Positions 2,647 to 21,895 of a stretch of DNA of 24,000 nucleotides are shown piece by piece. How positions within the stretch are numbered: position 1 is the first letter of the stretch; each line of letters begins with the position of its first letter. The DNA comes from Candidatus Electronema sp. PJ. GTDB lineage: Bacteria > Desulfobacterota > Desulfobulbia > Desulfobulbales > Desulfobulbaceae. The DNA is taken from contig NZ_JBLWEO010000083.1 in NCBI RefSeq assembly GCF_048287395.1, forward strand, positions 6,880 to 30,879. The letters run 5' to 3'. The notes under the pieces are model-generated. The model did no database searches. It saw only the letters and a list, made by a program, of their open reading frames with translations, and was not told where the DNA came from. Position numbers and translations under genes: made by a program.

Positions 2647-2734
2647 GTAAGACTTCTCAATAAGTGTTGGGGCAACTCTCTGTGGTTGCCCCGGCAATGT
2701 ATGCACGATGTCGCCTGGCATTGTGTCGTGGTTC

Positions 2735-2760
2735 AAGCCCCTGCGCAAGGGGCTTTTCTG
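2735..2760 (+). terminator. Candidate intrinsic terminator after porin paralog B
   Basis: Stem AAGCCCCT(2735-2742)/AGGGGCTT(2748-2755) followed by TTCTG. A second GC hairpin without a T tail lies just upstream: GGGGCAAC(2669-2676)/GTTGCCCC(2685-2692). Confidence 0.5.
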
Positions 2761-2805
2761 TATGCGGATGATAAAGCAGTCTGCACCTTTCCTGTCGCAC
2801 ACACT

Positions 2806-3507
2806 ATGGCCAAAGAAAAAATCCTGCTGGTTGAAGACGCAGAGGACATCCTGGAGTTAGTCCGCTACCATCTGGCCAAAGAAGGCTATCAGGTAAGCTG
2901 CGCCCGATCTGGGGAAGAGGCGTTGAATGCTGTCCGACAGACTTCCTTTGACCTGATCCTGCTTGATCTGATGCTGCCGGGTTTAGATGGGCTTGAGGTC
3001 TGCCGACGACTACGGCGGGACGCGGCAATGGCGCATGTACCTGTCATCATGCTTACTGCGAAAAGCGAGGAGACGGATATGGTGGTCGGCCTCGAATTAG
3101 GGGCGGATGATTACGTGACCAAACCCTTCAGTCCGCGTGTGTTGACAGCCCGCATCCGGGCTGCGTTGCGCCGCGCGCAGCAAAAGGACGACGGCGAACA
3201 GGCTGATATCCTCAGCATCGGGGCGTTGCAGATCGACCGCTCCCGTTATGAGGTCTGCGTTAAGGGCGAACTCGTGCGCCTGACCGCCACGGAGTTTGGC
3301 ATTTTGCTCTGTTTGACCAAACGGCCAGGCTGGGTCTTTAGCCGCTACCAGATTGTTGAGGCAGTCCGGGGCGAGGACTACAGCGTCACCGACCGGGCCG
3401 TGGATGTCCAGATTGTGGGGTTGCGGAAAAAGCTCGGGGAGCTGGGGCATTACATCGAAACCGTGCGCGGTGTGGGATATCGCTTCCAGGCGCAGGCCGA
3501 GGCATGA
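2806..3507 (+). CDS. OmpR/PhoB-family response regulator (PhoB-like)
   Basis: Receiver-domain motifs: ILLVEDAEDI, DLILLDLMLPGLDG, MLTAKSEETD, GADDYVTKPFSPRVLTARIRAALRR. These closely resemble the E. coli PhoB block [29 protein letters not shown]. Winged-helix C-terminus ends ...IETVRGVGYRF. The start was trimmed from ORF start 2686 to ATG 2806 (MAKEKILLVED). The stop overlaps the kinase start (ATGA at 3504-3507). Confidence 0.9.
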   Translation: MAKEKILLVEDAEDILELVRYHLAKEGYQVSCARSGEEALNAVRQTSFDLILLDLMLPGLDGLEVCRRLRRDAAMAHVPVIMLTAKSEETDMVVGLELGADDYVTKPFSPRVLTARIRAALRRAQQKDDGEQADILSIGALQIDRSRYEVCVKGELVRLTATEFGILLCLTKRPGWVFSRYQIVEAVRGEDYSVTDRAVDVQIVGLRKKLGELGHYIETVRGVGYRFQAQAEA

Positions 3508-5276
3508 GAAAGCTGCTCTGGAACCTGTGCAGCTCCTACCTGCTCCTGGTGCTCCTTGCCCTGAGCGCAAGTTTCTTTTCTGCGTCCTTCCTCCTCAAAC
3601 CTTTTCATAACGAACAAGCGCAGCAGCAGCTCGCAGCCCAGGCCCGACTCTTCCGCAGCCAGCTTATCCAGGAAGCAACTTTACGCCAGGCCGAAAGCAA
3701 GATTGGGAAGCTCTGTGCTGCCTTCCAGGCGGAGTTAGGCACCCGCATCACGGTGGTGCTGGCCTCAGGCAAGGTCATTGGCGACTCAGAAGAACAGCCA
3801 GCGACGATGGACAATCATGCTGACCGGCCAGAAATCAAGGCCGCGCTCGCAGATGAAATCGGCGTTTCTCTGCGCCGCAGCTACACCTTAGCCAAAGAGA
3901 TGCTGTATGTTGCTGTTCCGGTCAAAAGGGCAGGAGCAATCTGGGCGGTGGTGCGGGCAGCGGTGCCAGCCCAGGACGTGCAGCAGCAGCGTCAAGCGGT
4001 TCTGGGCAAGATTGCCCTGGCTGCGCTGCCAGCTTTGCTGCTAGCGGCAGCAGGCGGCTTGCTCCTGTCGTGGCGCATCAGTAGGCCGCTGGAAGAAATC
4101 GAGCAGGGCGTGCTGCGCTTCACTCAAGGCAGCTGGCAGCATCGTATTCGTATTGCTGGGCCGCTGGAAATCACCAGTCTGGCTGCGTCCTGCAACCGGA
4201 TGGCAGCCCAGCTTGACGAGCAAACCACGGTACTCAAGAAGCAGCTGGACTTGCTCGAATCGACTTTCCGCAGCATGGCCGAGGCAGTCGTAGTGACTGA
4301 CCAAGAGGGCCGCATTCTCCGCTGTAATCAGGCCGCAGGCAGGCTGTTTGGCTTTGAGATCAACCGGGTTGCCGACCGCGACATCCAGGAAATCATCCGT
4401 CATGCCGATGTGCAGCAGTTCCTCGCTAGGACGCTGAAAAAAGGCAGGCCGACCGAAGAGGTCATTGCCGTCAATACAGGCCAGGAAAAGATTCTCAGTG
4501 CGCATGGCACCCTGCTCCGCAGCGAAACCGGCCAGATCGCAGGGGCACTGCTGGTTTTTCATGATATCACCCGCCTCAAACGGCTGGAAACCATGCGCCG
4601 TGACTTTGCGGCCAATGTCTCGCATGAGCTGAAAACCCCAATCACCGCGATTAAAGGCTTTGTCGAGATCCTGCGCGATGGTGCTTTGCATGAACCGGAG
4701 AACGCTGACCGTTTTCTGGAGATTGTGAGCCGGAATGTCCAGCGACTGCACGCCATCATCGAAGATTTACTCGCTCTGGCCCGCTTAGAACAGGAAGAGG
4801 AGCAGGGACAAATCCACCTGAACTGGCAGGCCATCAAGCCGGTACTGGAAAACGCCGCTGCGGTCTGTGCGCCAGCCGCGCAGGCGAAAAGTATCCAGCT
4901 TGAACTGCGCTGCGCCGAGGCCATCAAGGCGCAGATCAACAGTGCGCTGCTGGAGCAGGCCGTGGTCAACCTAGTGGATAATGCAGTGAAATATAGCCAC
5001 GAGCGCAGTGCGGTTATCTTGCAGGCAGAACAACGGGTGCAGAACGGCGAAGTGGTGCTTGCGGTGCAGGATACGGGCTGTGGGATCAGTCGGGAGCATC
5101 ACGCCCGCCTTTTTGAACGCTTTTACCGGGTGGATAAGGCCCGCAGCTGCAAGCTGGGCGGCACTGGCTTGGGTCTGGCGATTGCCAAACATATCGTACA
5201 GGCCCATCACGGCACAATTACCGTGGAAAGCGCACTAGGCAAGGGGAGTATTTTCTCGATCAGGCTGCCAGGTTGA
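3504..5276 (+). CDS. Membrane sensor histidine kinase (PhoR-like: periplasmic domain, HAMP, PAS, HisKA, HATPase_c)
   Basis: Two hydrophobic segments (LLLVLLALSASFF and ALAALPALLLAAAGGLLL) flank a sensing domain of about 150 aa. H-box is RRDFAANVSHELKTPITAIKGF. N box is VNLVDNAVKYS. G boxes are VQDTGCGI and GGTGLGLAIAKHIV. Translationally coupled to the regulator. Confidence 0.9.
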   Translation: MRKLLWNLCSSYLLLVLLALSASFFSASFLLKPFHNEQAQQQLAAQARLFRSQLIQEATLRQAESKIGKLCAAFQAELGTRITVVLASGKVIGDSEEQPATMDNHADRPEIKAALADEIGVSLRRSYTLAKEMLYVAVPVKRAGAIWAVVRAAVPAQDVQQQRQAVLGKIALAALPALLLAAAGGLLLSWRISRPLEEIEQGVLRFTQGSWQHRIRIAGPLEITSLAASCNRMAAQLDEQTTVLKKQLDLLESTFRSMAEAVVVTDQEGRILRCNQAAGRLFGFEINRVADRDIQEIIRHADVQQFLARTLKKGRPTEEVIAVNTGQEKILSAHGTLLRSETGQIAGALLVFHDITRLKRLETMRRDFAANVSHELKTPITAIKGFVEILRDGALHEPENADRFLEIVSRNVQRLHAIIEDLLALARLEQEEEQGQIHLNWQAIKPVLENAAAVCAPAAQAKSIQLELRCAEAIKAQINSALLEQAVVNLVDNAVKYSHERSAVILQAEQRVQNGEVVLAVQDTGCGISREHHARLFERFYRVDKARSCKLGGTGLGLAIAKHIVQAHHGTITVESALGKGSIFSIRLPG

Positions 5277-5579: not shown

Positions 5580-7004
5580 TTAGAAGCGGAAGCGCAACCC
5601 GCCACCGATGCGGCCATATTTGTCCATATCGTCCAGCTCATCGGTGCCAACTCTGCCTTCCACGAAAATAGCCGCGCTGGTCGAGGCCGGAGCACCAAAG
5701 ATGCGCAGACCAATCTCGGCGATGTAGTCTGCTTGGCTGTCCTCGCTCGGCACTTCGTCTTCGCCATTGGTCATCCAGGAACCAACACCCAAGCCAAGGA
5801 AGAAGGGCGACCACGTTGCGCCGTGCGCTGAGGTGCATTGGTAGAAGTTATACTGCACCATGAGATCGAGCAGGAACGCATCGGCTCCAGCATCGCCACT
5901 GATCTTGGCTGCCCCGCCTGCTAAAGCCAAGAAGGAGAAGTGCGGATTAATAACATACTCCACGCCTAATCTACCTAGCCCGTAATCTGCTTCTTCTGGT
6001 TGCCGGAGATATCCTACGTCCGCAATGAAATGGAACGGCGACTCGCAGCACTGAGCCGCTGCACCCTGCACTTCTTTCACCACTTGCTTGACCACGGTTC
6101 GCGTCGGCCCAGGCACAGTGACTCGCTTCACGACGGTTCTGGTTGGGCCAGGCACATGGATAACCCGTTCCGGGCCAGGAACTTCCTTGACCACCTCTTT
6201 CACTACTTCTTTGACTACTGGTTTGTCCACGTATTTGATCACTTCCTTGGGCACGTAAACCGTCGGGCCAGTTACTTGTACTGGGCGATCAACATATTTG
6301 ATGACTTCTTTCGGAACATAAACCGTTGGCCCAGGCACCGGAACCTGCCGAACCACTTCTCTCACCACCGGGCGGTCAACATAAACCGTCGGGCCAGGAA
6401 CGGGAACCTGCACCTGCTTGATCACCTCTTGCGGGACATAGACGGTTGGGCCAGGCACCGGCACTTCCTTAATCACTTGCTGAATGACCGGGGCCTGCTG
6501 CTGCACTATTTGCACTGGCATCGGCGCAGGGACAGACTCCTTCAGGGCCAGATTGCCGCATTGCAGAGGTACGGCAAAGGTATAACGCTGGCCGTCCTTG
6601 TCAATCATAAACTCAAATACTGACAGCGGCGCATTGCCGCCCCAGGTCACATCCCGCGCTACCTTAACCCGGCCCTTGCCGTAGCGACGGAAGAGCATCC
6701 AGTCAATCTGCTGGCCTGGTAAGTAATCAACAATGGCGATCTGGGTCTGCGGATACTGGGCAATGTGGGCCTGCACCAGGGGGAAGAGGTCTGCATTGCC
6801 TGCTGCTGACATGCCCGCCTGGATATCGCCGCTCATATCCTGCATCATGGCCCGCAGATCCTCCACGGTTGATAGAGGTCGGGAAACCGGATGCGTACCC
6901 ACTGTCCTGAGAATACTTGCAGCCTGCACTTGGACTGCGCCTGTGGACGCAGTCAATGCGGCCAGCACTGCTACGGACACCAACATCTTTTTGCTCTTGT
7001 TCAT
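5580..7004 (-). CDS. Secreted protein: N-terminal globular domain, VPGPT/VKEV repeat linker, C-terminal OmpA-like 8-strand-type beta-barrel
   Basis: Start trimmed to ATG at 7004 (MNKSKKMLVSVAVLAALTASTGAVQVQAAS), which has AGGAGGAAG immediately upstream. The central region repeats PVPGPTVYVPKEVIKYVDRPV-like units. The C-terminus alternates hydrophobic residues and ends GGGLRFRF. Confidence 0.7.
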   Translation of the reverse strand: MNKSKKMLVSVAVLAALTASTGAVQVQAASILRTVGTHPVSRPLSTVEDLRAMMQDMSGDIQAGMSAAGNADLFPLVQAHIAQYPQTQIAIVDYLPGQQIDWMLFRRYGKGRVKVARDVTWGGNAPLSVFEFMIDKDGQRYTFAVPLQCGNLALKESVPAPMPVQIVQQQAPVIQQVIKEVPVPGPTVYVPQEVIKQVQVPVPGPTVYVDRPVVREVVRQVPVPGPTVYVPKEVIKYVDRPVQVTGPTVYVPKEVIKYVDKPVVKEVVKEVVKEVPGPERVIHVPGPTRTVVKRVTVPGPTRTVVKQVVKEVQGAAAQCCESPFHFIADVGYLRQPEEADYGLGRLGVEYVINPHFSFLALAGGAAKISGDAGADAFLLDLMVQYNFYQCTSAHGATWSPFFLGLGVGSWMTNGEDEVPSEDSQADYIAEIGLRIFGAPASTSAAIFVEGRVGTDELDDMDKYGRIGGGLRFRF

Positions 7005-7047
7005 CGCCTTCTTCCTCCTACATCTTTGTTGCATGTAATGAGCAGGC

Positions 7048-8727
7048 CTATTCCTGCTCAGAAATTGTCTGCCAATATGCTGGGTCAGCTGGGAATTCTT
7101 CCCGGCCAATCAAGGCCGCACCTACCGCGTTGCCCACTTCGTAATGCTCCGGGAAGCTGACGCTGGTGCGTAGCCGTTCTGCAACCGCAGGCAGGAAGCA
7201 GCGCGAGGCCGCACCAATGCCAATGATCGGGATCTTCACCGCCACGCTCAGGGAAAAGAGCGGGTTGTCCTTGCTGCTGAGAAAAGGGGCGGCCTCGCTG
7301 GCTGGCCAGACTTTGCGGGCCAGATAATCAAGGATGATGGTTTCAATAACTTGCTCGGTGGCTGCCACCACCCGCAGGCAGAGGCTTTCCACATCCATCT
7401 TCAGGGCCGCAGCCAAAGCAACAGCCCCGCGCTCGGCCTGCTCACGGTTGCCGATCTTCAGCTTGCCTAGGACATGCAGGGCATCAGTCGGCGTAAAGCC
7501 AATCATCCTGATCTGCTGGCGGTAGGTGAGTCGCTCCAACCATTTCTCTAACAGCACCCCAGACATGCCAATCTGCAGCGCCAAGGTCTCTGGGTTGGCT
7601 GCGCCATATTCGAGCAAACTGCGCAGGATTTCATCGTGCGAGGCTGCTGCTTCATCCAGCCCCTCTACCGGCATAACCAAGGCATTGCGCAGACCACAGC
7701 CCAACCAGTCTGCCGGATCTGGCAAACCAGTGGTCATAGACAGCGGCTGTACCCTCGTCTGCGCCAGACGAATGCTCGGGCTATGTTCTAGCGAGCAGAT
7801 AACATGGGAATCACCGCCCCCGCCTGCGGTGTACATGTCAATGGCCTCGATGTGGGTCTGCCACTGGCCGATCCGACAGCCTTCGTTGCTCAAGACCGGC
7901 CAACCGTTGCGGATCATACAGACATCAGTGGTTGTGCCGCCGACATCAACCACCAAGGCGGTCTGCTCGCCAGCGGTGCAACCGAAGCGGGCTGTAGCTG
8001 CCGGGCCACTGGCCACGGTAATTGCGGCTCGCTGCACGGCTTCGTCTAAGTTTGCGCCCCTACCGTTACCGCAGATGATCGTCACCGGGCAGTTTAGTCC
8101 GGCCCGGAGCATAGAAATCTGCACCGAGGAAAGAAAACCCACCATCAGCGGCATCAGGCGGGCGTGCAGGCAGGCCGTGGCTGCCCTGGCGTGCATTCCC
8201 GGACTACCGCTCACCTGATGCGAGCAGAAGACTGGCTTGGGATCGAGAATGCCAATGGCCTCTTCTGCCACCAACTCGTGGGTTGGGTTCTTGATCGACA
8301 TGGCACTACAGATCGCATAGCTATCTACCTCGCCGCGCAGGGCACGCACGGAATCCACCAGCCCTTCCAGATCAAGCGGCTCTTCTTCTTCGCCAGTGAT
8401 CTTATGGCCGCCCTTCATGAACACGCTGGCAGTCACTGGCAACTTGAAGTGGCGGACATGGCCAAAGACCAGCAAGGCAACCCGTGCGCCTCGTCCCTCA
8501 ACCACTGCGTTGGTAGCCAAGGTAGTAGAGACAGACAAACGGTTAACAGCCTCTGGTGGGATGCCAAAGGACAGGAGCCGCTCCAACACCTTGCCCACGC
8601 CAATGCCGAGATCGTGATGCGTGGTCGGCTCCTTGACCGAATGTGCCACCTGAAGGGTGGAATTGCTGATCAGAACGCCGTCGGTGCAGGTGCCGCCGGT
8701 GTCAATGCCGATGCAATAGCTGTCCAT
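7048..8727 (-). CDS. Hydantoinase/oxoprolinase-family (ASKHA-fold) protein
   Basis: Start trimmed to ATG at 8727 (MDSYCIGIDTGGTCTDGVLI). A second phosphate-binding motif is present (LVVDVGGTTTDVCMI). Both are typical of the hydantoinase A/oxoprolinase family. Stop codon is TAG. Confidence 0.7.
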   Translation of the reverse strand: MDSYCIGIDTGGTCTDGVLISNSTLQVAHSVKEPTTHHDLGIGVGKVLERLLSFGIPPEAVNRLSVSTTLATNAVVEGRGARVALLVFGHVRHFKLPVTASVFMKGGHKITGEEEEPLDLEGLVDSVRALRGEVDSYAICSAMSIKNPTHELVAEEAIGILDPKPVFCSHQVSGSPGMHARAATACLHARLMPLMVGFLSSVQISMLRAGLNCPVTIICGNGRGANLDEAVQRAAITVASGPAATARFGCTAGEQTALVVDVGGTTTDVCMIRNGWPVLSNEGCRIGQWQTHIEAIDMYTAGGGGDSHVICSLEHSPSIRLAQTRVQPLSMTTGLPDPADWLGCGLRNALVMPVEGLDEAAASHDEILRSLLEYGAANPETLALQIGMSGVLLEKWLERLTYRQQIRMIGFTPTDALHVLGKLKIGNREQAERGAVALAAALKMDVESLCLRVVAATEQVIETIILDYLARKVWPASEAAPFLSSKDNPLFSLSVAVKIPIIGIGAASRCFLPAVAERLRTSVSFPEHYEVGNAVGAALIGREEFPADPAYWQTISEQE

Positions 8728-8997
8728 GTCTATCGTGTCCGTCCTGTCTCGAGTCCCGCTGAAAAGTATTCGGAAATCATGTGCCTTGCTGAAGACTACC
8801 TGAAGAAGAGACATTGTAAACCGGTAGCTGCCGATTGTCCAGTACCGACTGAGTAAGTAACAGATGACTTGGCGTAGAGTAGGGCGAAGTTTCATCAGAA
8901 TGCGTTTGCATGGTAGGCGGAGAAGGAGTAACTTGCAGTGGATAAACTGCGCGGTGCTCACGCACAGCTCAGTTGCCAGTAACCTTCACCTTTTTCT

Positions 8998-10302
8998 ATG
9001 CAAATGACCGACCGAGCCAAAACCGTTGCTGATGCCTACCGGGCCTGCAACCCGGAAAAGCCTCTGTCTGCTGAGGATGATCGCTATGTTGATCTCTCGG
9101 AAAGCCGGGGCGTGGAGCATATTGCTGAACTCATCACCTGGAGAATCCAGAACAGCGAACCTGCCGTGCAAATCAAACAGCTTTTCACTGGCCATCGCGG
9201 TTCTGGCTAGACCACTGAGCTGTTTCGTTTGCAAAAGGAACTGGAGAACAACAAGTTCTGCACAGTGTATATGGACGTGGAAGAGCTGCTTGATCTGGGT
9301 TCGCTCAATTATCTTGACGTGCTGGTAGCTATCGCCCGCCAACTTCAGGAAGAGCTGGCCAAAAGAGACCTGCCGCTGCCAGATGTGCTCCTGAATAACA
9401 TCGCGAGCTGGTTTGACGAGTGTATTGTTGAAGAGACAAAGAGCACGGAAAAGCAAGGCTGCGTTGGAACTGAGGCGAAAGCAGGCAGCAAAATCCCCTT
9501 TTTCGCCGAACTGTTTGCCAGCGTCACCGCCAACATTAAGACTGGCAGCACCCAGCGGGAGACGATCAGGAAAAAACTGAGCCGGGAACTCAGTGTGTTT
9601 ATGGACAAGCTCAACCTGCTGATCAGTACGGCCCGCGAAAAGGTGCGCAAAAAAGGCTTTGCTGATCTTGTCCTGATTGTGGACGGCATGGAGAAGATGC
9701 ACTACGAGCTGAATTCAGAAGGTCAGTCCAACTACAACGTGCTTTTCATTCACAACGCCGAGCGGCTGCGGGCACCGGAATGCCACATCATTTACACCGT
9801 GCCGGTTTCGCTCGCCTATCAGCAAAATCTCAAGGCGTATTTTGATGACATTATCGTCCTACCGATGGTCAAGACGGATAAGCCAGGCATCAAGAAGCTG
9901 ATTGAGGTTGTCGAACGGCGAGTGGATACCAGTTTGGTCTTCGGCGGGCCTAAACTGCTGACCAAGCTGGCGCAGACCAGTGGCGGCGTGGTGCGCGACC
10001 TGATGCACTTGATACGGATGTCGATGGAGACCAAAGCCGAGCAGATTGGCGCGGCTGATGTGGATCGCGCTATCTCTAATCTGCGTAAAATCTATGATCG
10101 CCTGATTCGCGAAAACGATATCGAGCACTTCCAGCGGATTCAGCGCACTCGCCGCATCCAAGGCGGCGATGAAAAGGCGGGCCGCCTGCTTGACCAACGC
10201 TTAGTACTGGAGTATCAGAACGGCGATCTTTGGGCAGATATCCACCCAATCGTTCGCCAAATCCCCTGGGTCAAAGCTGCGCTGGCTGACCATGCAGCCT
10301 GA
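8998..10302 (+). pseudogene. STAND/AAA-like P-loop NTPase interrupted by one in-frame TAG at the Walker A lysine codon (9208-9210)
   Basis: ORFs 8998-9210 and 9229-10302 are in the same frame. Reading through gives ...IKQLFTGHRGSG*TTELFRLQKEL..., which is GxxGxGK[ST]T with the K codon replaced by TAG. A Walker-B-like, NACHT-like motif FADLVLIVDGMEKM lies at about 9661-9699. No other stop occurs in the downstream 364 codons. Confidence 0.6.
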
Positions 10303-11845
10303 AAGCACCGAATCCGTTATCAGCCGGATATGCCGCGCTCTGAGCTGGGCAGACGGCTTTGCCCTCTTCTTTGTCCTCGTCAATCTGCCAACAGCGCGGA
10401 AGGCCCTGGCCCGCCAAGTGATCACCCAGTTTGCGCGGCCCGTTGTTGAGCTGACTGTACCGCAGCAGGGCTTTGGCGGCACGACCTTAGACGGCTGGCT
10501 ACTGCCTCAGTTGTCAGGCACAGACGAAACCAGCCCGGTTTTCCTGCATGGCTTGGACCAGCTCCTGCCTAGCGGGCAAAAGCAGCTGCGGCATTTCCTC
10601 CAGCAGCTCAATTGGCGGCGTTCTGCGCTGGCTGCGATCAAGCGGCCTTTGGTGCTTTGGCTGCCGCGCCACGCTTTGGACAGCCTGGCCGAGTATGCGC
10701 CGGACTTTTACGACTGGTACAGCAATGTTTATGAGTTTGCCTCGCCGGATGAGGAAGCAGTGCAGCTGGGCAATGGCTTTAGGGCGGAATTCAACACCGA
10801 GGTGCATCCAGCCTTACGCCAAAGCAAGGCAGAAAAGGAGCAATGGCTGCACACCTTGACCGTGCTCCTGGATGAACACCCGGAACGCAACGCCTACCGG
10901 GCCAAGTTGCTTTATGATACAGGCCAACTGCATTATGCTCTGGGCAATTTGGATGATGCCTTTGCCTTGTACAAGCAATCACTCGACATCTACAGAGAAC
11001 TTGGCAACAAGCAGGGGGAAGGAGCACGTCTCAACAACATCTCTCAGATTTACCATACCCGGGGTGACTACGAAACCGCGCTCGAATATCTCCAGCAGGC
11101 ACTCGCAATTCAGCAGGAGATTGGCGATAAGCAGGGGGAAGGAGAAAGCTTCAACAACATCTCCCAAATTTACAAAGCCCGGGGCGAATACGAAACCGCG
11201 CTTAACTATCTTGAACAGTCGCTCAACATCCGCAGAGAACTTGGCGACAAGCAGAGAGAAGGAGTAATTCTCAACAATATTTCCGGGATTTACTATGCCC
11301 TTGGCGACGACGAAACCGCACTTAACTATCTTAAACAGTCGCTCGAGATCAGCAAAGTACTCGGCGACAAGCAGGGAGAAGGAGTAATCTTCAACAACAT
11401 TTCCCAGATTTACTATGCCAGTGGCGACGACGAAACAGCACTTAATTATCTTAAACAGTCGCTCGAGATCAGCAAATTACTCGGTGACAAGCAAGGAGAA
11501 GGAGTAATCCTTAACAACATCTCGTTGATTTATAAGGCCCATGGCGACTACGAAACCGCGCTCGACTTTCTCCAGCAATCACTTGTAATTCGTCAGGAGA
11601 CTGGCAACAAGGCAGGGCTTTGTACCACCCTATTCAACATCGGCCATCTTCACAGAAACAAAGGAGAAGAGGAAAAAGCCCGGCAAATGTGGGTGCAAGC
11701 CTATCTGCTGGCCAAAGAAATCGGCTACGCTGACGTATTGCATAATTTGGAGCAATTAGCCAAAAAACTTGGCTGGGAAGGCGGCTTACAGGCTTGGCAA
11801 ACACTGGCAAAGAAGTTCAACCTGGGCAAGACCAAGCCAGATTGA
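10292..11845 (+). CDS. TPR-repeat protein with an N-terminal domain of about 170 aa and unknown function
   Basis: The ATG at 10292 overlaps the NTPase stop (10300-10302) by 11 nt. There are about seven 40-aa TPR_12-like units, for example GDYETALEYLQQALAIQQEIGDKQGEGESFNNISQIYKAR. Confidence 0.85.
   Translation: MQPESTESVISRICRALSWADGFALFFVLVNLPTARKALARQVITQFARPVVELTVPQQGFGGTTLDGWLLPQLSGTDETSPVFLHGLDQLLPSGQKQLRHFLQQLNWRRSALAAIKRPLVLWLPRHALDSLAEYAPDFYDWYSNVYEFASPDEEAVQLGNGFRAEFNTEVHPALRQSKAEKEQWLHTLTVLLDEHPERNAYRAKLLYDTGQLHYALGNLDDAFALYKQSLDIYRELGNKQGEGARLNNISQIYHTRGDYETALEYLQQALAIQQEIGDKQGEGESFNNISQIYKARGEYETALNYLEQSLNIRRELGDKQREGVILNNISGIYYALGDDETALNYLKQSLEISKVLGDKQGEGVIFNNISQIYYASGDDETALNYLKQSLEISKLLGDKQGEGVILNNISLIYKAHGDYETALDFLQQSLVIRQETGNKAGLCTTLFNIGHLHRNKGEEEKARQMWVQAYLLAKEIGYADVLHNLEQLAKKLGWEGGLQAWQTLAKKFNLGKTKPD
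10890..11730 (+). repeat. Intragenic 120-bp tandem repeats encoding the TPR units
   Basis: The TCAACAACAT-type motif recurs at 11031, 11151, 11271, 11391, 11511 and 11631, exactly 120 nt apart. The units around 11300-11410 and 11420-11530 are nearly identical at the nucleotide level. Confidence 0.85.
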
Positions 11846-12184: not shown

Positions 12185-13822
12185 CTACAACAGCCCGTTC
12201 ACTATCGCCTTGGCCTCGTCCTGAATCCGGGCCAAGTGCGCCGCATCAATGAAACTCTCGGCGTAAATTTTGTAGATGTCCTCGGTGCCGGAAGGCCGCA
12301 GGGCGCACCAGCCGTTGGCCGCGACAATCTTCAGCCCACCGATGGCTGCGCCGTTGCCCGGTGCTTTGGTGAGAATGGCAACGATGGGTTCTCCGGCCAA
12401 GGTTTTCACCGGCACGTCCTCCGGCTGCAATTTCTTCAGCACCGCCTTCTGCACGGGCGTGGCGGGCGCGTCAATGCGAGCATAAACCGGCGCACCAAAC
12501 TGCTGCGTCAGATCTTGATAGTATTCGCCCGGATCGCGTCCGGTTCGCGCCGTGATTTCAGCCGCCAGCAGGTTGAGGATGATGCCGTCCTTGTCCGTGC
12601 TCCAGACCGTGCCGTCCTTGCGCAGGAAGCTCGCGCCCGCGCTTTCCTCGCCGCCAAAAAAAACTTTGCCCTTGAGCAGGCCGTCCACGAACCATTTGAA
12701 ACCGACCGGCACTTCAACCACTTTGCGGCCCAGCGCGGCGGCGGCGCGATCAATGATTGAGCTGCTGACTAAGGTTTTACCTATACCCAAATCAGCTCGC
12801 CACTGCGGACGATGCTGGGCTAAGTAGGAAATAGCGACGCTCAGGTAGTGATTTGGGTTCATCAGGCCCATGCTCTTGGTGACAATGCCGTGGCGGTCAA
12901 AGTCGGTGTCGTTGCCAAAGGCGATATCAAAGTCCGCCTTCATCGCCACCAGCCCGGCCATCGCGTAGGGCGAGGAGCAGTCCATGCGGATTTTGCCATC
13001 CTTATCGCAGTGCATGAAGGAGAAGGTGGAATCGAGCGTGTCGTGGAAAATCTCCATGTTCAAGCCGTATTGCGCCTTAATCGCCTGCCAGTAGGCCATG
13101 CCTGCGCCGCCCATTGCGTCCGCGCCAATGCGGATGCCGGACTTGGCAATGGCCTCCATGTCAATCACTTGGGTCAAATCCTTGACATAAGGCAGCACGT
13201 AATCGTACAAACGCAGTGTCTCCACCTTGAGCGCGTCCGCCAGCGGCAGTATTTTTACTCCAGCTAAATTGTCTTCAAGCAGCTGGTTAGCGCGGGCCTC
13301 GATAACGCTGGTCACATCGGTATCTGCTGGGCCACCATGCGGCGGATTGTACTTGAACCCGCCGTCAGCAGGCGGATTATGTGACGGGGTGATGACGATG
13401 CCGTCGCAAAGCGGTCTGCCCTGCTGGTTATGGGTGAGGATAGCGTGTGAGATGACTGGTGTGGGCGTGTAAACCGAATTCCCAGCGGCAATACAGACCT
13501 GTACCTTGTTGGCGGCCAGCACTCGCAACGCCGTGAGCTGGGCAGGCCAGGAGAGCGGGTGGGTATCCATGCCCATGAACAAGGTGCCATTGATGCCTGC
13601 TTCACGTCGGTAATCACAAACAGCCTGGGTAATGGCCAAGATGTGCGCCTCGTTGAAGCTGCGCTTAAGCGCACTCCCACGATGGCCAGAAGTGCCGAAG
13701 CTGACTCTTTCCGCGCTCTGCTGCGTATCAGGAATCAAGGTAAAATAGGCGGAAATTAATTCCGGGACATTGATTAATATCGATTGCGGGGCAGGCAGGC
13801 CTGCTAAAGGGTGGGTGCTCAT
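12185..13822 (-). CDS. pgm: Alpha-D-glucose phosphate-specific phosphoglucomutase
   Basis: Start trimmed to ATG at 13822 ([12 protein letters not shown]...), with AGGAGGAA upstream. The product is 546 aa, the same length as E. coli Pgm. Active-site loop is [17 protein letters not shown]. Metal loop is GADAMGG. C-terminus contains ...[18 protein letters not shown]. Confidence 0.92.
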
Positions 13823-13950
13823 GGTTCCTCCTGTGCTGTTTACTGGTCGTGCTGCTTCTCTGCTGCGGCAAAAGTATCCCGTCTTCGTCAATCTTGCCAG
13901 AGAAAAACAGCAGTTGGCAGGCAGCCTTGCCCAGAAAAACGCAGAAAGCC

Positions 13951-13979
13951 GTTGACAGCTTCTGCTGTTTAGCATAAAG
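13951..13979 (+). promoter_or_regulatory. Candidate sigma70-type promoter for rpsU
   Basis: TTGACA (13951-13956), a 17-nt spacer, then TAAAGT (13974-13979). It lies about 70 nt upstream of the rpsU ATG. This is sequence pattern only. Confidence 0.35.
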
Positions 13980-14318: not shown

Positions 14319-15230
14319 GTGTTGGAAACCTCGCCTCTGATTGACAGCCTTGACCACTTTCTGCGCCATCTCACGGTACAGCGTAGGCTCTCTCTGAACA
14401 CGGTTAATAGCTACGGTTCTGATCTGCGGTTCTTTATAGAATTTCTCCAAAAGCAGCACATAGACGATCCAGCGCACATCACTGCCGTTGAAGTTCGGGC
14501 TTTCCTAAAAGATTGCTTTGCGCGCGAGATTCAAGCCCGTAGTAATGCCCGACGACTCTCTGCTCTACGCTCCTTTTTCGCTTTCCTGGTCTTGCAAGGA
14601 AAGCTCACTGTCAGCCCAGCAGCAGAGATAGACCTACCCAAGATTGGCAGCATTCTTCCAGGAACTCTGTCTGTCGCCGAAGTTGATCTCTTGCTCGTAC
14701 CACCTGATGCGGGCGAGACTGATCCATTGCTGTTGCGCAATGCCGCGATGCTCCACTTGCTCTATGCCACTGGTATCCGGGTTTCCGAATTAGTCAATCT
14801 GCCCGTGCAGGATTGCAGTTTGAGCAGCGGCCATGTCCGCATTCTTGGCAAAGGGAATAAAGAGCGCATGGTGCCATTCAACACCGAGGCAGGTGTGAGA
14901 ATTACAGCTTATTTGGAACAAGGCCGTCCAGTATTACTGAGCGGGCGGAGTAGCCGTTTTCTCTTTGTCACCAAACAAGGTGGAGCCATGACCCGCAACC
15001 GCTTCTGGCGGATCATTGGCGAACTGGCCCGACAGCGCGGCATCAGTAAGACTGTCAGTCCCAAGACCATGCGGCACTCTTTCGCTACCCACATGCTGGC
15101 AGGCGGAGCCGATTTGCGTGCTCTCCAGATGATGCTCGGTCATGCTGATATTGCCACTACCCAAATTTATACCCACGTTGATAAAAGTCGCCTCAAGGCC
15201 GGGCACCAGAAGTTTCACCCACGCGGCTAA
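14319..15230 (+). CDS. xerD: Tyrosine recombinase XerD
   Basis: Collinear with E. coli XerD. Shared motifs include LYATGIRVSELV, ILGKGNKERMVP, MRHSFATHML, GADLRALQMMLGHADIATTQIYTHV and a C-terminal HPRG. Apparent GTG start at 14319. Confidence 0.85.
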   Translation: MLETSPLIDSLDHFLRHLTVQRRLSLNTVNSYGSDLRFFIEFLQKQHIDDPAHITAVEVRAFLKDCFAREIQARSNARRLSALRSFFAFLVLQGKLTVSPAAEIDLPKIGSILPGTLSVAEVDLLLVPPDAGETDPLLLRNAAMLHLLYATGIRVSELVNLPVQDCSLSSGHVRILGKGNKERMVPFNTEAGVRITAYLEQGRPVLLSGRSSRFLFVTKQGGAMTRNRFWRIIGELARQRGISKTVSPKTMRHSFATHMLAGGADLRALQMMLGHADIATTQIYTHVDKSRLKAGHQKFHPRG

Positions 15231-15369
15231 TTCGTATTGCCTTCTCTCAACAGAAAAATTCTCCCTCCTGCACAAAGCAACAGCATCCTCTGACAAAACG
15301 CGGTACATTGTCGGGCGTGACCTGGTCACGCTTCAGCTATCATTCCCAAAATGCAACTCAAGCGACACC

Positions 15370-15951
15370 ATGAACCCGATGCGACATTTACCGAATCTGA
15401 TTACTGCTGCCCGCCTTATCCTCACCTCGCTACTGGCTGTGCTGCTGATGTTTGTTGAAGAAGAGAAAAAAGGGCTGGCTGTGCTCTGCTGTCTGTTGTT
15501 CACTATTGCTGCGGTCACTGACTTGCTTGATGGTTACGTGGCCCGTCGCTACGGCGCAGTCAGTACCTTGGGCAAACTACTCGACCCCTTGGCCGACAAA
15601 CTGCTGGTAACGACGGCCTTGATCATGCTCATTCCCCTGAATCGTTTACCCGCCTGGATCGCCCTACTGATTCTCTCGCGCGAACTGCTGGTAACAGGAC
15701 TGCGGGGCATTGCTTCTTCTGCCGGAATTGTGGTGGCGGCAAGTGGGTTAGGCAAGATCAAATCCATTACCCAGTACGTTGGGCTTGGCATCCTCATTTT
15801 TCCCCTCGGTGTCCTGCCGATCCCATTCCTACATCACCTCGGCCTCTTCCTGGTCTATATCGCCCTGGTGCTGACCTTATGGTCAGGCGCAGACTATTTC
15901 TACCGCCTACGCCGAGTCTTTTTGGCGGAAGAGGACAGTAATCAAGCATAA
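15370..15951 (+). CDS. pgsA: CDP-diacylglycerol--glycerol-3-phosphate 3-phosphatidyltransferase
   Basis: Start trimmed to ATG 15370 (MNPMRHLPNLITAARL). CDP-alcohol phosphatidyltransferase motif is DLLDGYVARRYGAVSTLGKLLDPLADK. Multiple TM segments. The 193-aa size is typical for this enzyme. Confidence 0.88.
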   Translation: MNPMRHLPNLITAARLILTSLLAVLLMFVEEEKKGLAVLCCLLFTIAAVTDLLDGYVARRYGAVSTLGKLLDPLADKLLVTTALIMLIPLNRLPAWIALLILSRELLVTGLRGIASSAGIVVAASGLGKIKSITQYVGLGILIFPLGVLPIPFLHHLGLFLVYIALVLTLWSGADYFYRLRRVFLAEEDSNQA

Positions 15952-19511: not shown

Positions 19512-20669
19512 TCAATCTCTTTCCGGCCTGACTGCCTCTTGCTCTTCAGCCCGCATTGCCAGCGCATCCTCCAGAATGGCACTGACCTCGTTGGCAGCCC
19601 GCTGCATGGCTTCATCGCGGTAATGGGCGTACCGCTGGGTCATCTGCGGACTTTTGTGCGTCATCAGCTTTTGCAATGTGAACATGTCCACCTTGCCGCT
19701 ACTGGCCAGCATGGTGGCATATACATGTCGCAGCCCATGTAATGGCCGGAAATCTGCGGGCAACCCAGCTGTATCCCTAATCGCCCTGACCTCCTTGGCA
19801 ATGTCGTTGCGCTGGCCACCACCTTGGGCCGGGAAAACATATTCACCGCCCTGCTTCGCGAGGGATTGGAACAAAGCACTTGCGCTGTTGTTGAGCGGAA
19901 TCTTCTGACTCTTCCCACCTTTTGGCTCCCGGATATGGATGAAGCCCCGCTCGAAATCTATATCATCCCATTTCAGCTTGAATAGCTCGCCCCGGCGCAT
20001 ACCAGTATATAATACGAGCCGCATCATGTTAGCCGCTGGAACGCACGTGCTTGTCTCCATCGCTTTAAAGAGCCTCCGCATCTGCTCTGGGGTCAAGTCT
20101 TCGGTCTTGATGTTGTCAACAGAGGGCATGTCAATCTTGAAGGACAGGGGGGCAGTCCAGCCTAGCCCGCAGCCGTAATTCACAATCCTCTTCAGCAGAG
20201 TTAGAACATGCTTCACCGTCTGTGGTGCAAGGGTTTTCAGCAGGTTTGTTCGTAGTCGGTCAATGTCCAGCTTAGTAAGCTCGTGCGGCTCTTTGCTACC
20301 AAAGAGTTGCTTCAGGTATTTTGCATATCTGCCAGCATCACTTTGGGTTGACCGGCTGTCAGGTAAGCAAGCGCGGTAGGCTTCCCACAGATGCGCCACT
20401 GTTCGCCGTTGACTGATCTCTTCATCAGCGGCCTTGCGTCTGTCGCGATTACTTTGCTGTTTGCCTTCGATTTTATCTGAGCGGATGCCTGCGGCTTTAA
20501 CAGGAGTCATGTTGTCCTGGTACTGGCGGCCTGCCTTTTCTTCAACCAATTTTCCGTCTTTTCTGTAGCGGATATAGTAGATCCGCTCCGTCTTTTTCCC
20601 GTTGGCTGCCATGCCCTCAATGTAGAACACCCCGGCATAGTTTGTTTTATACCGTTTCATGCTTGCCAT
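19512..20669 (-). CDS. Tyrosine-type site-specific integrase (phage integrase family)
   Basis: Catalytic residues appear intact: TGMRRGEL (Arg), HGLRHVYAT (HxxR) and RYAHY (Tyr). The N-terminal SAM-like/arm-binding region is present. Confidence 0.88.
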   Translation of the reverse strand: MASMKRYKTNYAGVFYIEGMAANGKKTERIYYIRYRKDGKLVEEKAGRQYQDNMTPVKAAGIRSDKIEGKQQSNRDRRKAADEEISQRRTVAHLWEAYRACLPDSRSTQSDAGRYAKYLKQLFGSKEPHELTKLDIDRLRTNLLKTLAPQTVKHVLTLLKRIVNYGCGLGWTAPLSFKIDMPSVDNIKTEDLTPEQMRRLFKAMETSTCVPAANMMRLVLYTGMRRGELFKLKWDDIDFERGFIHIREPKGGKSQKIPLNNSASALFQSLAKQGGEYVFPAQGGGQRNDIAKEVRAIRDTAGLPADFRPLHGLRHVYATMLASSGKVDMFTLQKLMTHKSPQMTQRYAHYRDEAMQRAANEVSAILEDALAMRAEEQEAVRPERD

Positions 20670-20785
20670 GATTCATTTCTCCCAGTACATTTCTAGCTTA
20701 GCTTCAAGCTAATGGCCTCTTGCTCCCCACCCTATTCCCCACGATAGCCGTAACTATACTGGTAAATAAGAGAGAAGTCGATACC

Positions 20786-21895
20786 ATGAAGGATTCCTTT
20801 GTAACCGGACAGCGAATTCACAAGCTGCAAGCATCGTTGCGGAGCCGCAATCTTGATGCCATTCTGATCACTGAGCCGGCAAACCGGCGGTATCTCAGCG
20901 GCTATACCCCTGTTGATCACGACATCCAGGAAAGCTCTGGTATCCTGCTGATCCCCAAAAAAGGCAGTCCCTGGTTGCTGACTGACTCCCGCTTTGAGCT
21001 GCAAGCCAAGGAGGAGGCCGTAAGTTTCACGGTCGAGCTGTACCGGAAAGGGATGTCTGTCTTGCTTAAAACACTGCTACCTTCTCTAGGGATAAAGCGA
21101 TTGGCTTTTGAGAGCCATTATTTTCTTCATTCTGCGGTTGGCAGACTTGGAGAGGTACTGGGGAAAAGCGTGGACCTGGTGCCGCTCACTGGTTTGATTG
21201 AACGGATGCGGGTGATTAAGAGTGAGGAGGAAATCCGTCTGCTGAAACAGTCTGTCCTGCGCAACGAGCAGGTGTTTCAGCAGGTGCGCAGCATGATCGC
21301 GCCAGGCATGACCGAGATCGACATCGCCTTAACCATTGAGCGCACCATGCGGGAGCTAGGCGCAGAGCGGCCCAGCTTTGAGACCATCGTCGCCTTCGGC
21401 TCTAATGCCGCCAAGCCCCATGCTGTGCCGTCAAACCGGGTGCTGAAGGAGAACGAGCTGGTTCTCATCGACATGGGCCTGGTGTTGCAAGGCTATTGCT
21501 CCGATATGACCCGTACCTTTTTTCTTGGCGAACCAGACAGCATGTTTCTTGAACGGCTGCGAACCGTGCGCCGGGCACAGCTTGCTGCGACCAAGGCAAT
21601 CCGAGCCGGTGCCGTCTGTCGAGCAGTGGATCAGGCGGCCCGGCAAATCATTGCCAATGCAGGCTACGGCAGCTATTTCGGCCACGGTCTTGGGCACGGA
21701 GTCGGTCTCGCTGTGCATGAGTCGCCGCGCCTCAGTGCGCGTAGCCGAAAACAGCTGCAAGCCGGGATGATCGTCACTATTGAACCGGGCATCTATCTGC
21801 CTAGCTGGGGTGGTATTCGGCTAGAGAATATGGCCGTTGTCCGCGAGGAAGGCTGCGAGCTGTTGAATGAGGATATCAGCGGTTTGGATCTGTAG
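20786..21895 (+). CDS. M24-family Xaa-Pro aminopeptidase/dipeptidase
   Basis: Start trimmed to ATG 20786 (MKDSFVTGQRI). Pita-bread metal ligands are present: LIDMGLVLQGYCSDMTRTF, HGLGHGVGLAVHESP, VTIEPGIY and IRLENM. Stop codon is TAG. Confidence 0.88.
   Translation: MKDSFVTGQRIHKLQASLRSRNLDAILITEPANRRYLSGYTPVDHDIQESSGILLIPKKGSPWLLTDSRFELQAKEEAVSFTVELYRKGMSVLLKTLLPSLGIKRLAFESHYFLHSAVGRLGEVLGKSVDLVPLTGLIERMRVIKSEEEIRLLKQSVLRNEQVFQQVRSMIAPGMTEIDIALTIERTMRELGAERPSFETIVAFGSNAAKPHAVPSNRVLKENELVLIDMGLVLQGYCSDMTRTFFLGEPDSMFLERLRTVRRAQLAATKAIRAGAVCRAVDQAARQIIANAGYGSYFGHGLGHGVGLAVHESPRLSARSRKQLQAGMIVTIEPGIYLPSWGGIRLENMAVVREEGCELLNEDISGLDL

Follow-up and report, generated by a model that had tools for sequence, protein, structure and literature searches.

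The window analysed here, 24,000 nucleotides (24 kb) long, belongs to a 31,175-bp contig of the freshwater cable bacterium Candidatus Electronema sp. PJ (Desulfobulbaceae). It holds on its forward strand a gene for a predicted ATPase that is interrupted by one stop codon, and an intact gene for a TPR protein that follows with a short overlap (Table 1). Inspection of the letters and the open reading frames alone (the sequence-only reading in the following) had proposed that the ORFs 8998-9210 and 9229-10302 share one frame and are separated by nothing but a TAG, and direct reading of the window bases bears this out: the TAG stands at 9208-9210, positions 8998 and 9229 are in one frame, and the two ORFs make up a single gene split by the TAG alone. 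Translation of 8998-10302 gives 434 codons with 1 internal stop, located in ...KQLFTGHRGSG*TTELFRLQ... (the asterisk marks the stop). The same reading had counted 364 downstream codons free of any further stop; the frame is indeed open to its end, but the sense codons after the TAG number 363, followed by the TGA at 10300-10302. The Walker B motif with a NACHT-like appearance that it had pointed out is real, and the overlapping TPR gene that it took to be intact is preserved over its full length.

Table 1. Features of the interrupted ATPase gene and of its partner gene in the window
Feature	Position	Strand	Basis or remark
ATPase gene 5' part, codons 1-70	8998-9207	+	ends in the Walker A glycine-rich loop GHRGSG (9190-9207); translation and homology
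In-frame TAG at the invariant Walker A lysine, residue 71	9208-9210	+	sequence and homologue alignment
ATPase gene remainder, codons 72-434 and TGA	9211-10302	+	without further stop or frameshift
TTG used as RefSeq start, WP_417911107.1 (357 aa)	9229-9231	+	without upstream Shine-Dalgarno-like sequence
Walker B, VLIVDGMEK	9670-9696	+	in the ATPase gene remainder
CHIIYTVP	9781-9804	+	in the ATPase gene remainder
Lid motif, SGGVVRDLM	9979-10005	+	in the ATPase gene remainder
Invariant HP, C-terminal winged helix	10243-10248	+	H416-P417 of the ATPase
Partner gene, TPR protein, 517 aa, intact	10292-11845	+	ATG overlaps the ATPase gene end by 11 nt
Partner N-terminal domain, AAA+-like fold without GK[ST] P-loop	10292-10876	+	alignment A2, AF2, Foldseek
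Partner TPR array (TPR_12/TPR_10 repeats), intact	10877-11845	+	Pfam TPR_12, E 2e-73

In regard to the start of the ATPase gene, the ATG at 9004 is probably the true one, since the homologues begin with MT..., in agreement with this second ATG. RefSeq annotates only the 357-aa tail of the protein, and the ATPase locus bears no pseudogene flag. The corresponding entry, WP_417911107.1, named 'hypothetical protein', is 100% identical to the lysine-restored query over 82% of its length, and the 20 nt upstream of its TTG start read AGACCACTGAGCTGTTTCGT. It represents a truncated call for a disrupted gene, for which treatment as a pseudogene or a check against the reads is advisable. Opposite the 5' part of the ATPase gene lies an antisense ORF (8986-9702, minus strand, 238 aa) that matches no family and is probably spurious.

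When the lysine is restored at the TAG, the joined protein can be aligned over 97-100% of its length to more than 100 proteins of 429-445 aa (lowest E-value 1e-206), so the two ORFs are not chance neighbours. Upstream of the TAG, the 70 encoded residues match the N-termini of the nearest homologues (P0002-P0005) at 87-90% identity. The sequence-only reading would have lost its ground if the two ORF products had belonged to unrelated families, and the homology search placed both in one family. Its central claim, that the stop sits on the P-loop lysine codon, was upheld by the alignment of homologues: each of 110 full-length proteins has lysine at the site, the codon is AAA (36) or AAG (28) in every one of the 64 related loci for which the motif could be located, and a TAG is found in none of these proteins or loci. 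The surrounding motif, TGHRGSGK[TS]TEL, is nearly invariant in a 24-sequence alignment. As the codon is AAG, AAG and AAA in the three nearest DNA relatives, and only the first codon base differs from AAG, the single A-to-T change suggested earlier can explain the stop, and a substitution of AAG to TAG would be its simplest origin. The gene belongs to the family by descent, but no functional member can be produced from it as written, the Walker A lysine being absent. In JGI metagenomes, a DNA pattern across the site that left the codon free had 0 matches, while a scan of genome contigs returned 496 related loci, the best of them 66% identical, from a collection that does not contain the PJ contig.

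The product of the gene is predicted to be an AAA+ ATPase of about 434 aa, resembling Orc1/Cdc6 or STAND proteins in its succession of core, lid and winged helix. Members of the family are about 435 aa long and carry the signature TGHRGSGK[TS]TE ... IVDGxEKM ... CHhhYTxP ... SGGxxRDLM ... HP, in which the Walker B motif takes the form hhhhDGxEK with a NACHT-like spacing, and the invariant H416-P417 pair of the winged helix is seen both in the 24-sequence alignment and in the predicted model. The AF2 model (pLDDT 86.8, pTM 0.86) comprises an AAA+ core, a lid and a C-terminal winged helix, and it is the alpha/beta core together with the helical lid in this model that places the protein in the AAA+ superfamily. 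Foldseek matched it best to archaeal Orc1/Cdc6, and then to RuvB, RFC, CED-4 and Apaf-1; there were 52 PDB matches at E<=1e-3, and all among the 50 listed are AAA+ or STAND proteins. Sequence profiles gave only sub-threshold matches of the AAA_22, AAA_14, KAP or Sll1717 type (23.6 bits for NCBIfam Sll1717 against a cut-off of 75), and neither Pfam NACHT nor Pfam NB-ARC matched the ATPase. The PADLOC-DB 2.0 profiles likewise gave no match to the ATPase, and only generic TPR models matched the partner. A weak nSTAND_NTPase5 match was obtained for one distant homologue. The ATPase ends after the winged helix, the TPRs being located in the next gene, and no effector domain was found.

The family is large, with at least 1,486 clusters (50% identity) at E<=1e-30 and 3,541 at E<=1e-10. 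Its hosts include cable bacteria, Thiotrichales, Methylococcales, Gallionella, Chloroflexota, Acidobacteriota, Rhodothermales, filamentous cyanobacteria and some archaeal MAGs; the gene pairing is conserved across phyla, and many of the hosts are filamentous. One member (P0306, 765 aa) bears a HipA_C kinase domain at its N-terminus (E 3.5e-53); no other enzymatic or toxin-like domain was seen in fusion with the family.

The N-terminal domain of the partner comprises its first 195 residues. Of the related loci, 76 were counted as having enough downstream sequence, and in all 76 a homologue of this domain immediately follows the ATPase gene; one further locus (L084) has room downstream and gave no match to this domain. 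In 10 distant loci, the partners show the same layout of N-terminal domain and TPR repeats. The structure of the domain, predicted with nine database homologues (pLDDT 80.4), gave Foldseek matches that were all AAA+ proteins, namely ORC subunits, NSF/Sec18, Hda, DnaA and clamp-loader subunits. At the sequence level, a PDB search with the profile of the domain returned only noise, and a profile-profile comparison with the ATPase family was not significant (probability 0.3%). Because it is without a GK[ST] P-loop, the domain is a degenerate and presumably inactive NTPase domain. The overlap between the ATPase stop and the partner start is conserved in three related loci (L001, L003 and L004), which makes translational coupling plausible. 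The flanks differ in every genome examined, with unrelated housekeeping genes around the related loci, and the unit is therefore a self-contained two-gene cassette. In the window, it is bordered by a hydantoinase-like gene and a phosphoglucomutase gene; the former does not adjoin the cassette in the three nearest Electronema genomes, and no orthologous intact copy was readable there.

Several known systems resemble the cassette or its parts. The best structural matches of the ATPase, archaeal Orc1/Cdc6 (PDB 2qby_A and 1fnn_A), have the AAA+ core, the helical lid and the C-terminal winged helix in common with it, and one cable-bacterial homologue is annotated as 'Orc1-like AAA ATPase domain-containing protein'. 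However, sequence identity is about 12% and TM-scores are only 0.37-0.45, the Walker B motif is hhhhDE in Orc1/Cdc6 and hhhhDGxEK in the window ATPase, and the latter is without a replication-origin context and always paired with a TPR protein. STAND NTPases (Apaf-1, CED-4, NACHT, Avs) share with it the P-loop, the NACHT-like D-G-x-E spacing of the Walker B motif and the core-lid-winged-helix module, and CED-4 (E 1.6e-4) and Apaf-1 (E 4.3e-4) are among the fold matches, although Orc1/Cdc6 scores better. STAND proteins are recognised by a nucleotide-binding domain, a helical domain and a winged helix with a conserved histidine contacting ADP; this three-part build and the H416-P417 pair are present in the predicted model of the ATPase, and the HP of the winged helix may be equivalent to the STAND 'MHD' histidine. 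On the other hand, the TPR array of the cassette resides on a separate polypeptide, there is no effector domain, and neither Pfam nor PADLOC gives a match. Membership of the ATPase among STAND proteins is not established; neither the profiles nor a sensor and effector on one polypeptide place it there.

Regarding the organisation of the cassette as a whole, TPR repeats are the commonest sensor type of Avs proteins (PMC13581612), and a two-gene operon with an active and an inactive STAND module was described by Kaur, Iyer, Burroughs and Aravind in 2021, in their section on GT4, together with the proposal of a hetero-oligomeric ring for the two products (PMC8195603). That operon is likewise a mobile two-gene unit, in which one NTPase has the nucleotide motifs while its neighbour combines an eroded NTPase module with a variable C-terminal part. 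In that operon, GT4 or HEPN effectors are attached to the inactive module, as against TPR repeats here; in organisation, it is the closest described parallel to the cassette. The iSTAND and iSTAND2 ternary conflict systems (Kaur et al. 2020), which are defined by MoxR and vWA partner genes, resemble the cassette in having an inactive NTPase module and in being enriched in multicellular bacteria (PMC7159879). Assignment to an iSTAND ternary system was rejected, since neither MoxR nor vWA occurs in the window or in the related loci.

As to the nature of the stop codon, the TAG is in our judgement probably a private and very recent nonsense allele (AAG to TAG) of Candidatus Electronema sp. PJ. 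Elsewhere, the gene is preserved as in intact relatives, which makes the lesion very recent in evolutionary terms: all 68 invariant family columns (alignment A1) are kept in the window protein, and in a leave-one-out HMM comparison the protein with restored lysine scores 674.6 bits, as compared with 633-714 in 29 intact relatives and 671-679 in the three nearest ones. There is no overall acceleration of rate, the window protein being nearer to the P0007/P0009 outgroup clade than P0002 is, and the ATPase gene shows no detectable decay. Two observations could nevertheless point to a pseudogene of greater age, in decay under relaxed constraint. Among the 117 strongly conserved columns (those conserved in >=90% of homologues; a 118th is the lysine site itself), the window protein departs at five (F88C, H246Y, H253N, Q256R and G279K), all of them 3' of the stop, which is above the 0-4 departures of any of the 25 nearest relatives and gives a weak hint of some age for the allele. 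In addition, protein identity falls to 64-70% against every relative between residues 81 and 330, compared with 82-88% at either end against P0002-P0004. At the DNA level, identity to the related locus L004/P0003 (L004 2885-4192) is 83-91% at 9034-9243, 85-93% at 9994-10340 and 58-74% in between (about 9240-9990), the drop beginning about 30-90 nt 3' of the TAG. However, a further stop or indel is absent from the 363 codons after the TAG, the HMM score lies in the normal range, and neutral decay would have reached the N- and C-terminal parts to the same extent, whereas these remain 82-91% identical to L004. A similar mosaic is also seen between intact homologues, such as P0005 and P0003. As decay would not spare both ends, and as intact homologues are mosaic too, the pattern suggests recombination among family copies and not erosion. 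Decay after an old pseudogenisation, an idea that came from the divergent middle, was for these reasons (the HMM score and the mosaic comparisons) rejected, and we regard an older pseudogene as very unlikely.

A single lesion in a perfectly preserved gene is also what a base-call or consensus error would look like, and it is possible, if on the doubtful side, that the organism carries AAG, or has TAG in a minority of its population only, and that the contig has a wrong or a minority base at 9208, through a sequencing, consensus or assembly artefact or as a minority variant. The gene has no other sign of inactivation, the assembly comes from an uncultured organism with one deposited contig, and the sole 100% match is the RefSeq entry itself. 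Being a mosaic, the gene may moreover have been assembled from a sample with mixed templates or paralogues; several genomes have two cassette copies (L006 and L008, L039 and L041, L070 and L080), and since in several MAGs the two copies lie on different contigs, paralogy within a genome is common. As a transversion, an A-to-T change belongs to the rarer class among spontaneous mutations, which also counts against a recent nonsense allele. Against an artefact, the assembly does not look error-prone, because the remaining 16 window genes are intact with full-length domain matches, no frameshifts are present in the 24 kb, and the window contains no N and one long homopolymer only. A finished consensus rarely has substitution errors, a base absent from the reads cannot arise in a graph assembler, and true single-lesion pseudogenes are generally commoner than consensus errors creating a stop. 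Two other family copies are disrupted as well, one by a stop (L026) and one by a frameshift (L043), which speaks for a real null allele. The T at 9208 is probably real in the organism. It is extremely unlikely, in contrast, that the TAG is decoded by near-cognate readthrough, a suppressor tRNA or pyrrolysine to give some full-length protein, possibly as a throttle on a costly NTPase. Although the downstream frame is fully open and well preserved, and low-level near-cognate UAG readthrough is known in bacteria, TAG serves as an ordinary stop in the window, where it ends the genes 7048-8961 (-), 12185-13975 (-) and 20720-21895 (+), the ends of all three coinciding with the ends of homologues or domain models. 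Not one of the 64 loci and 110 homologues has a TAG at the site, folding of the 96 nt that follow the stop is not better than that of shuffled sequences (z = -0.66), and neither pyrrolysine nor the Gln, Tyr or Trp inserted by readthrough could stand in for the Walker A lysine. No tRNA was found in the 24-kb window, nor any Rfam family at gathering thresholds, and a literature search on pyrrolysine and cable bacteria yielded only ANME papers, none of which gives pyrrolysine as a cable-bacterial trait. From the three explanations offered in the sequence-only reading, recent loss of function and error are therefore retained, while suppression or readthrough is opposed by the ordinary use of TAG as a stop, by its absence from the relatives and by the lack of RNA structure.

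The restored gene offers 136 possible single-base changes to a stop, distributed over 119 codons, and the lysine site is 1 of them; a stop falling on the Walker A lysine codon is accordingly a coincidence of about 0.7% (1 in 136). The site is not unusual as a tetranucleotide, CTAG occurring 28 times in the window against 34 expected from trinucleotides. Because a stop at codon 71 costs 84% of the protein whatever residue is replaced, the TAG on the catalytic lysine has no mechanistic weight beyond truncation at residue 70. In itself, the TAG is ordinary, one more single-lesion null allele or base error. It resembles the single-lesion pseudogenes and natural null alleles in which one nonsense codon interrupts an otherwise intact accessory gene with a context that varies between relatives, the sole difference being that the codon hit here is that of the Walker A lysine. 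Among the disrupted copies elsewhere in the family, the one in Thiotrichales MAG BB31 (L026, 4001-5278) contains a single in-frame TAA directly before the Walker B strand (…QDL*DIVILVDGLEKM…) and is otherwise intact, whereas that of Thermodesulfobacteriota MAG031 (L043, 4001-4920, and L066, 144-650) has a frameshift near residues 34-42 and is split over two contigs.

If the nonsense allele is real, translation would end after residue 70, inside the P-loop, and no functional ATPase would be made. A product restarted at the TTG at 9229 would be without strand 1 and the P-loop, and would presumably be inactive. Expression of the partner would probably be lowered too, through lost translational coupling and Rho polarity, because the partner ATG overlaps the ATPase stop. 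The active ATPase and the partner, whose AAA+ domain is eroded, probably assemble into a hetero-oligomer; its sole functional nucleotide site would come from the ATPase, and a ligand would be bound by the TPR array. According to this scheme, the TAG of PJ would remove the single active nucleotide site of the cassette and create a fresh natural null allele. A defence role for the cassette is only a guess, since there is no PADLOC match. One could go further and see in the pair a new 'split STAND' module for sensing or conflict, with the PJ allele selected as a knock-out of a costly or autoimmune system, or with low-level readthrough providing a full-length but ATPase-dead scaffold; we consider this quite unlikely. 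The main interest lies in the cassette as a large, uniform and uncharacterised family rather than in the stop codon, and if the TAG is real, PJ represents a natural null that can be compared with relatives carrying an intact cassette.

Some further observations concern the other genes of the window. The hydantoinase/oxoprolinase-like ORF next to the cassette (7048-8961, minus strand) is over-extended: its homologues are about 548 aa long and align from ORF residue 79, which places the real start near 8727. Together with a gene without family assignment (5580-7109, minus strand), it forms a pair that is conserved in other Electronema genomes (L086-L088). Two tandem Porin_4 genes (186-1340 and 1450-2646) precede the genes for an OmpR-type response regulator (2686-3507) and a PAS/HAMP histidine kinase (3504-5276). 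Two tyrosine-recombinase (Phage_integrase) genes are also present, one of XerC/D length at 14319-15230 (+) and the other at 19512-20669 (-). The former overlaps by 89 nt an ORF for a CDP-alcohol phosphatidyltransferase (15142-15951), the domain of which begins at residue 82, and the phosphatidyltransferase gene therefore probably starts later than 15142.
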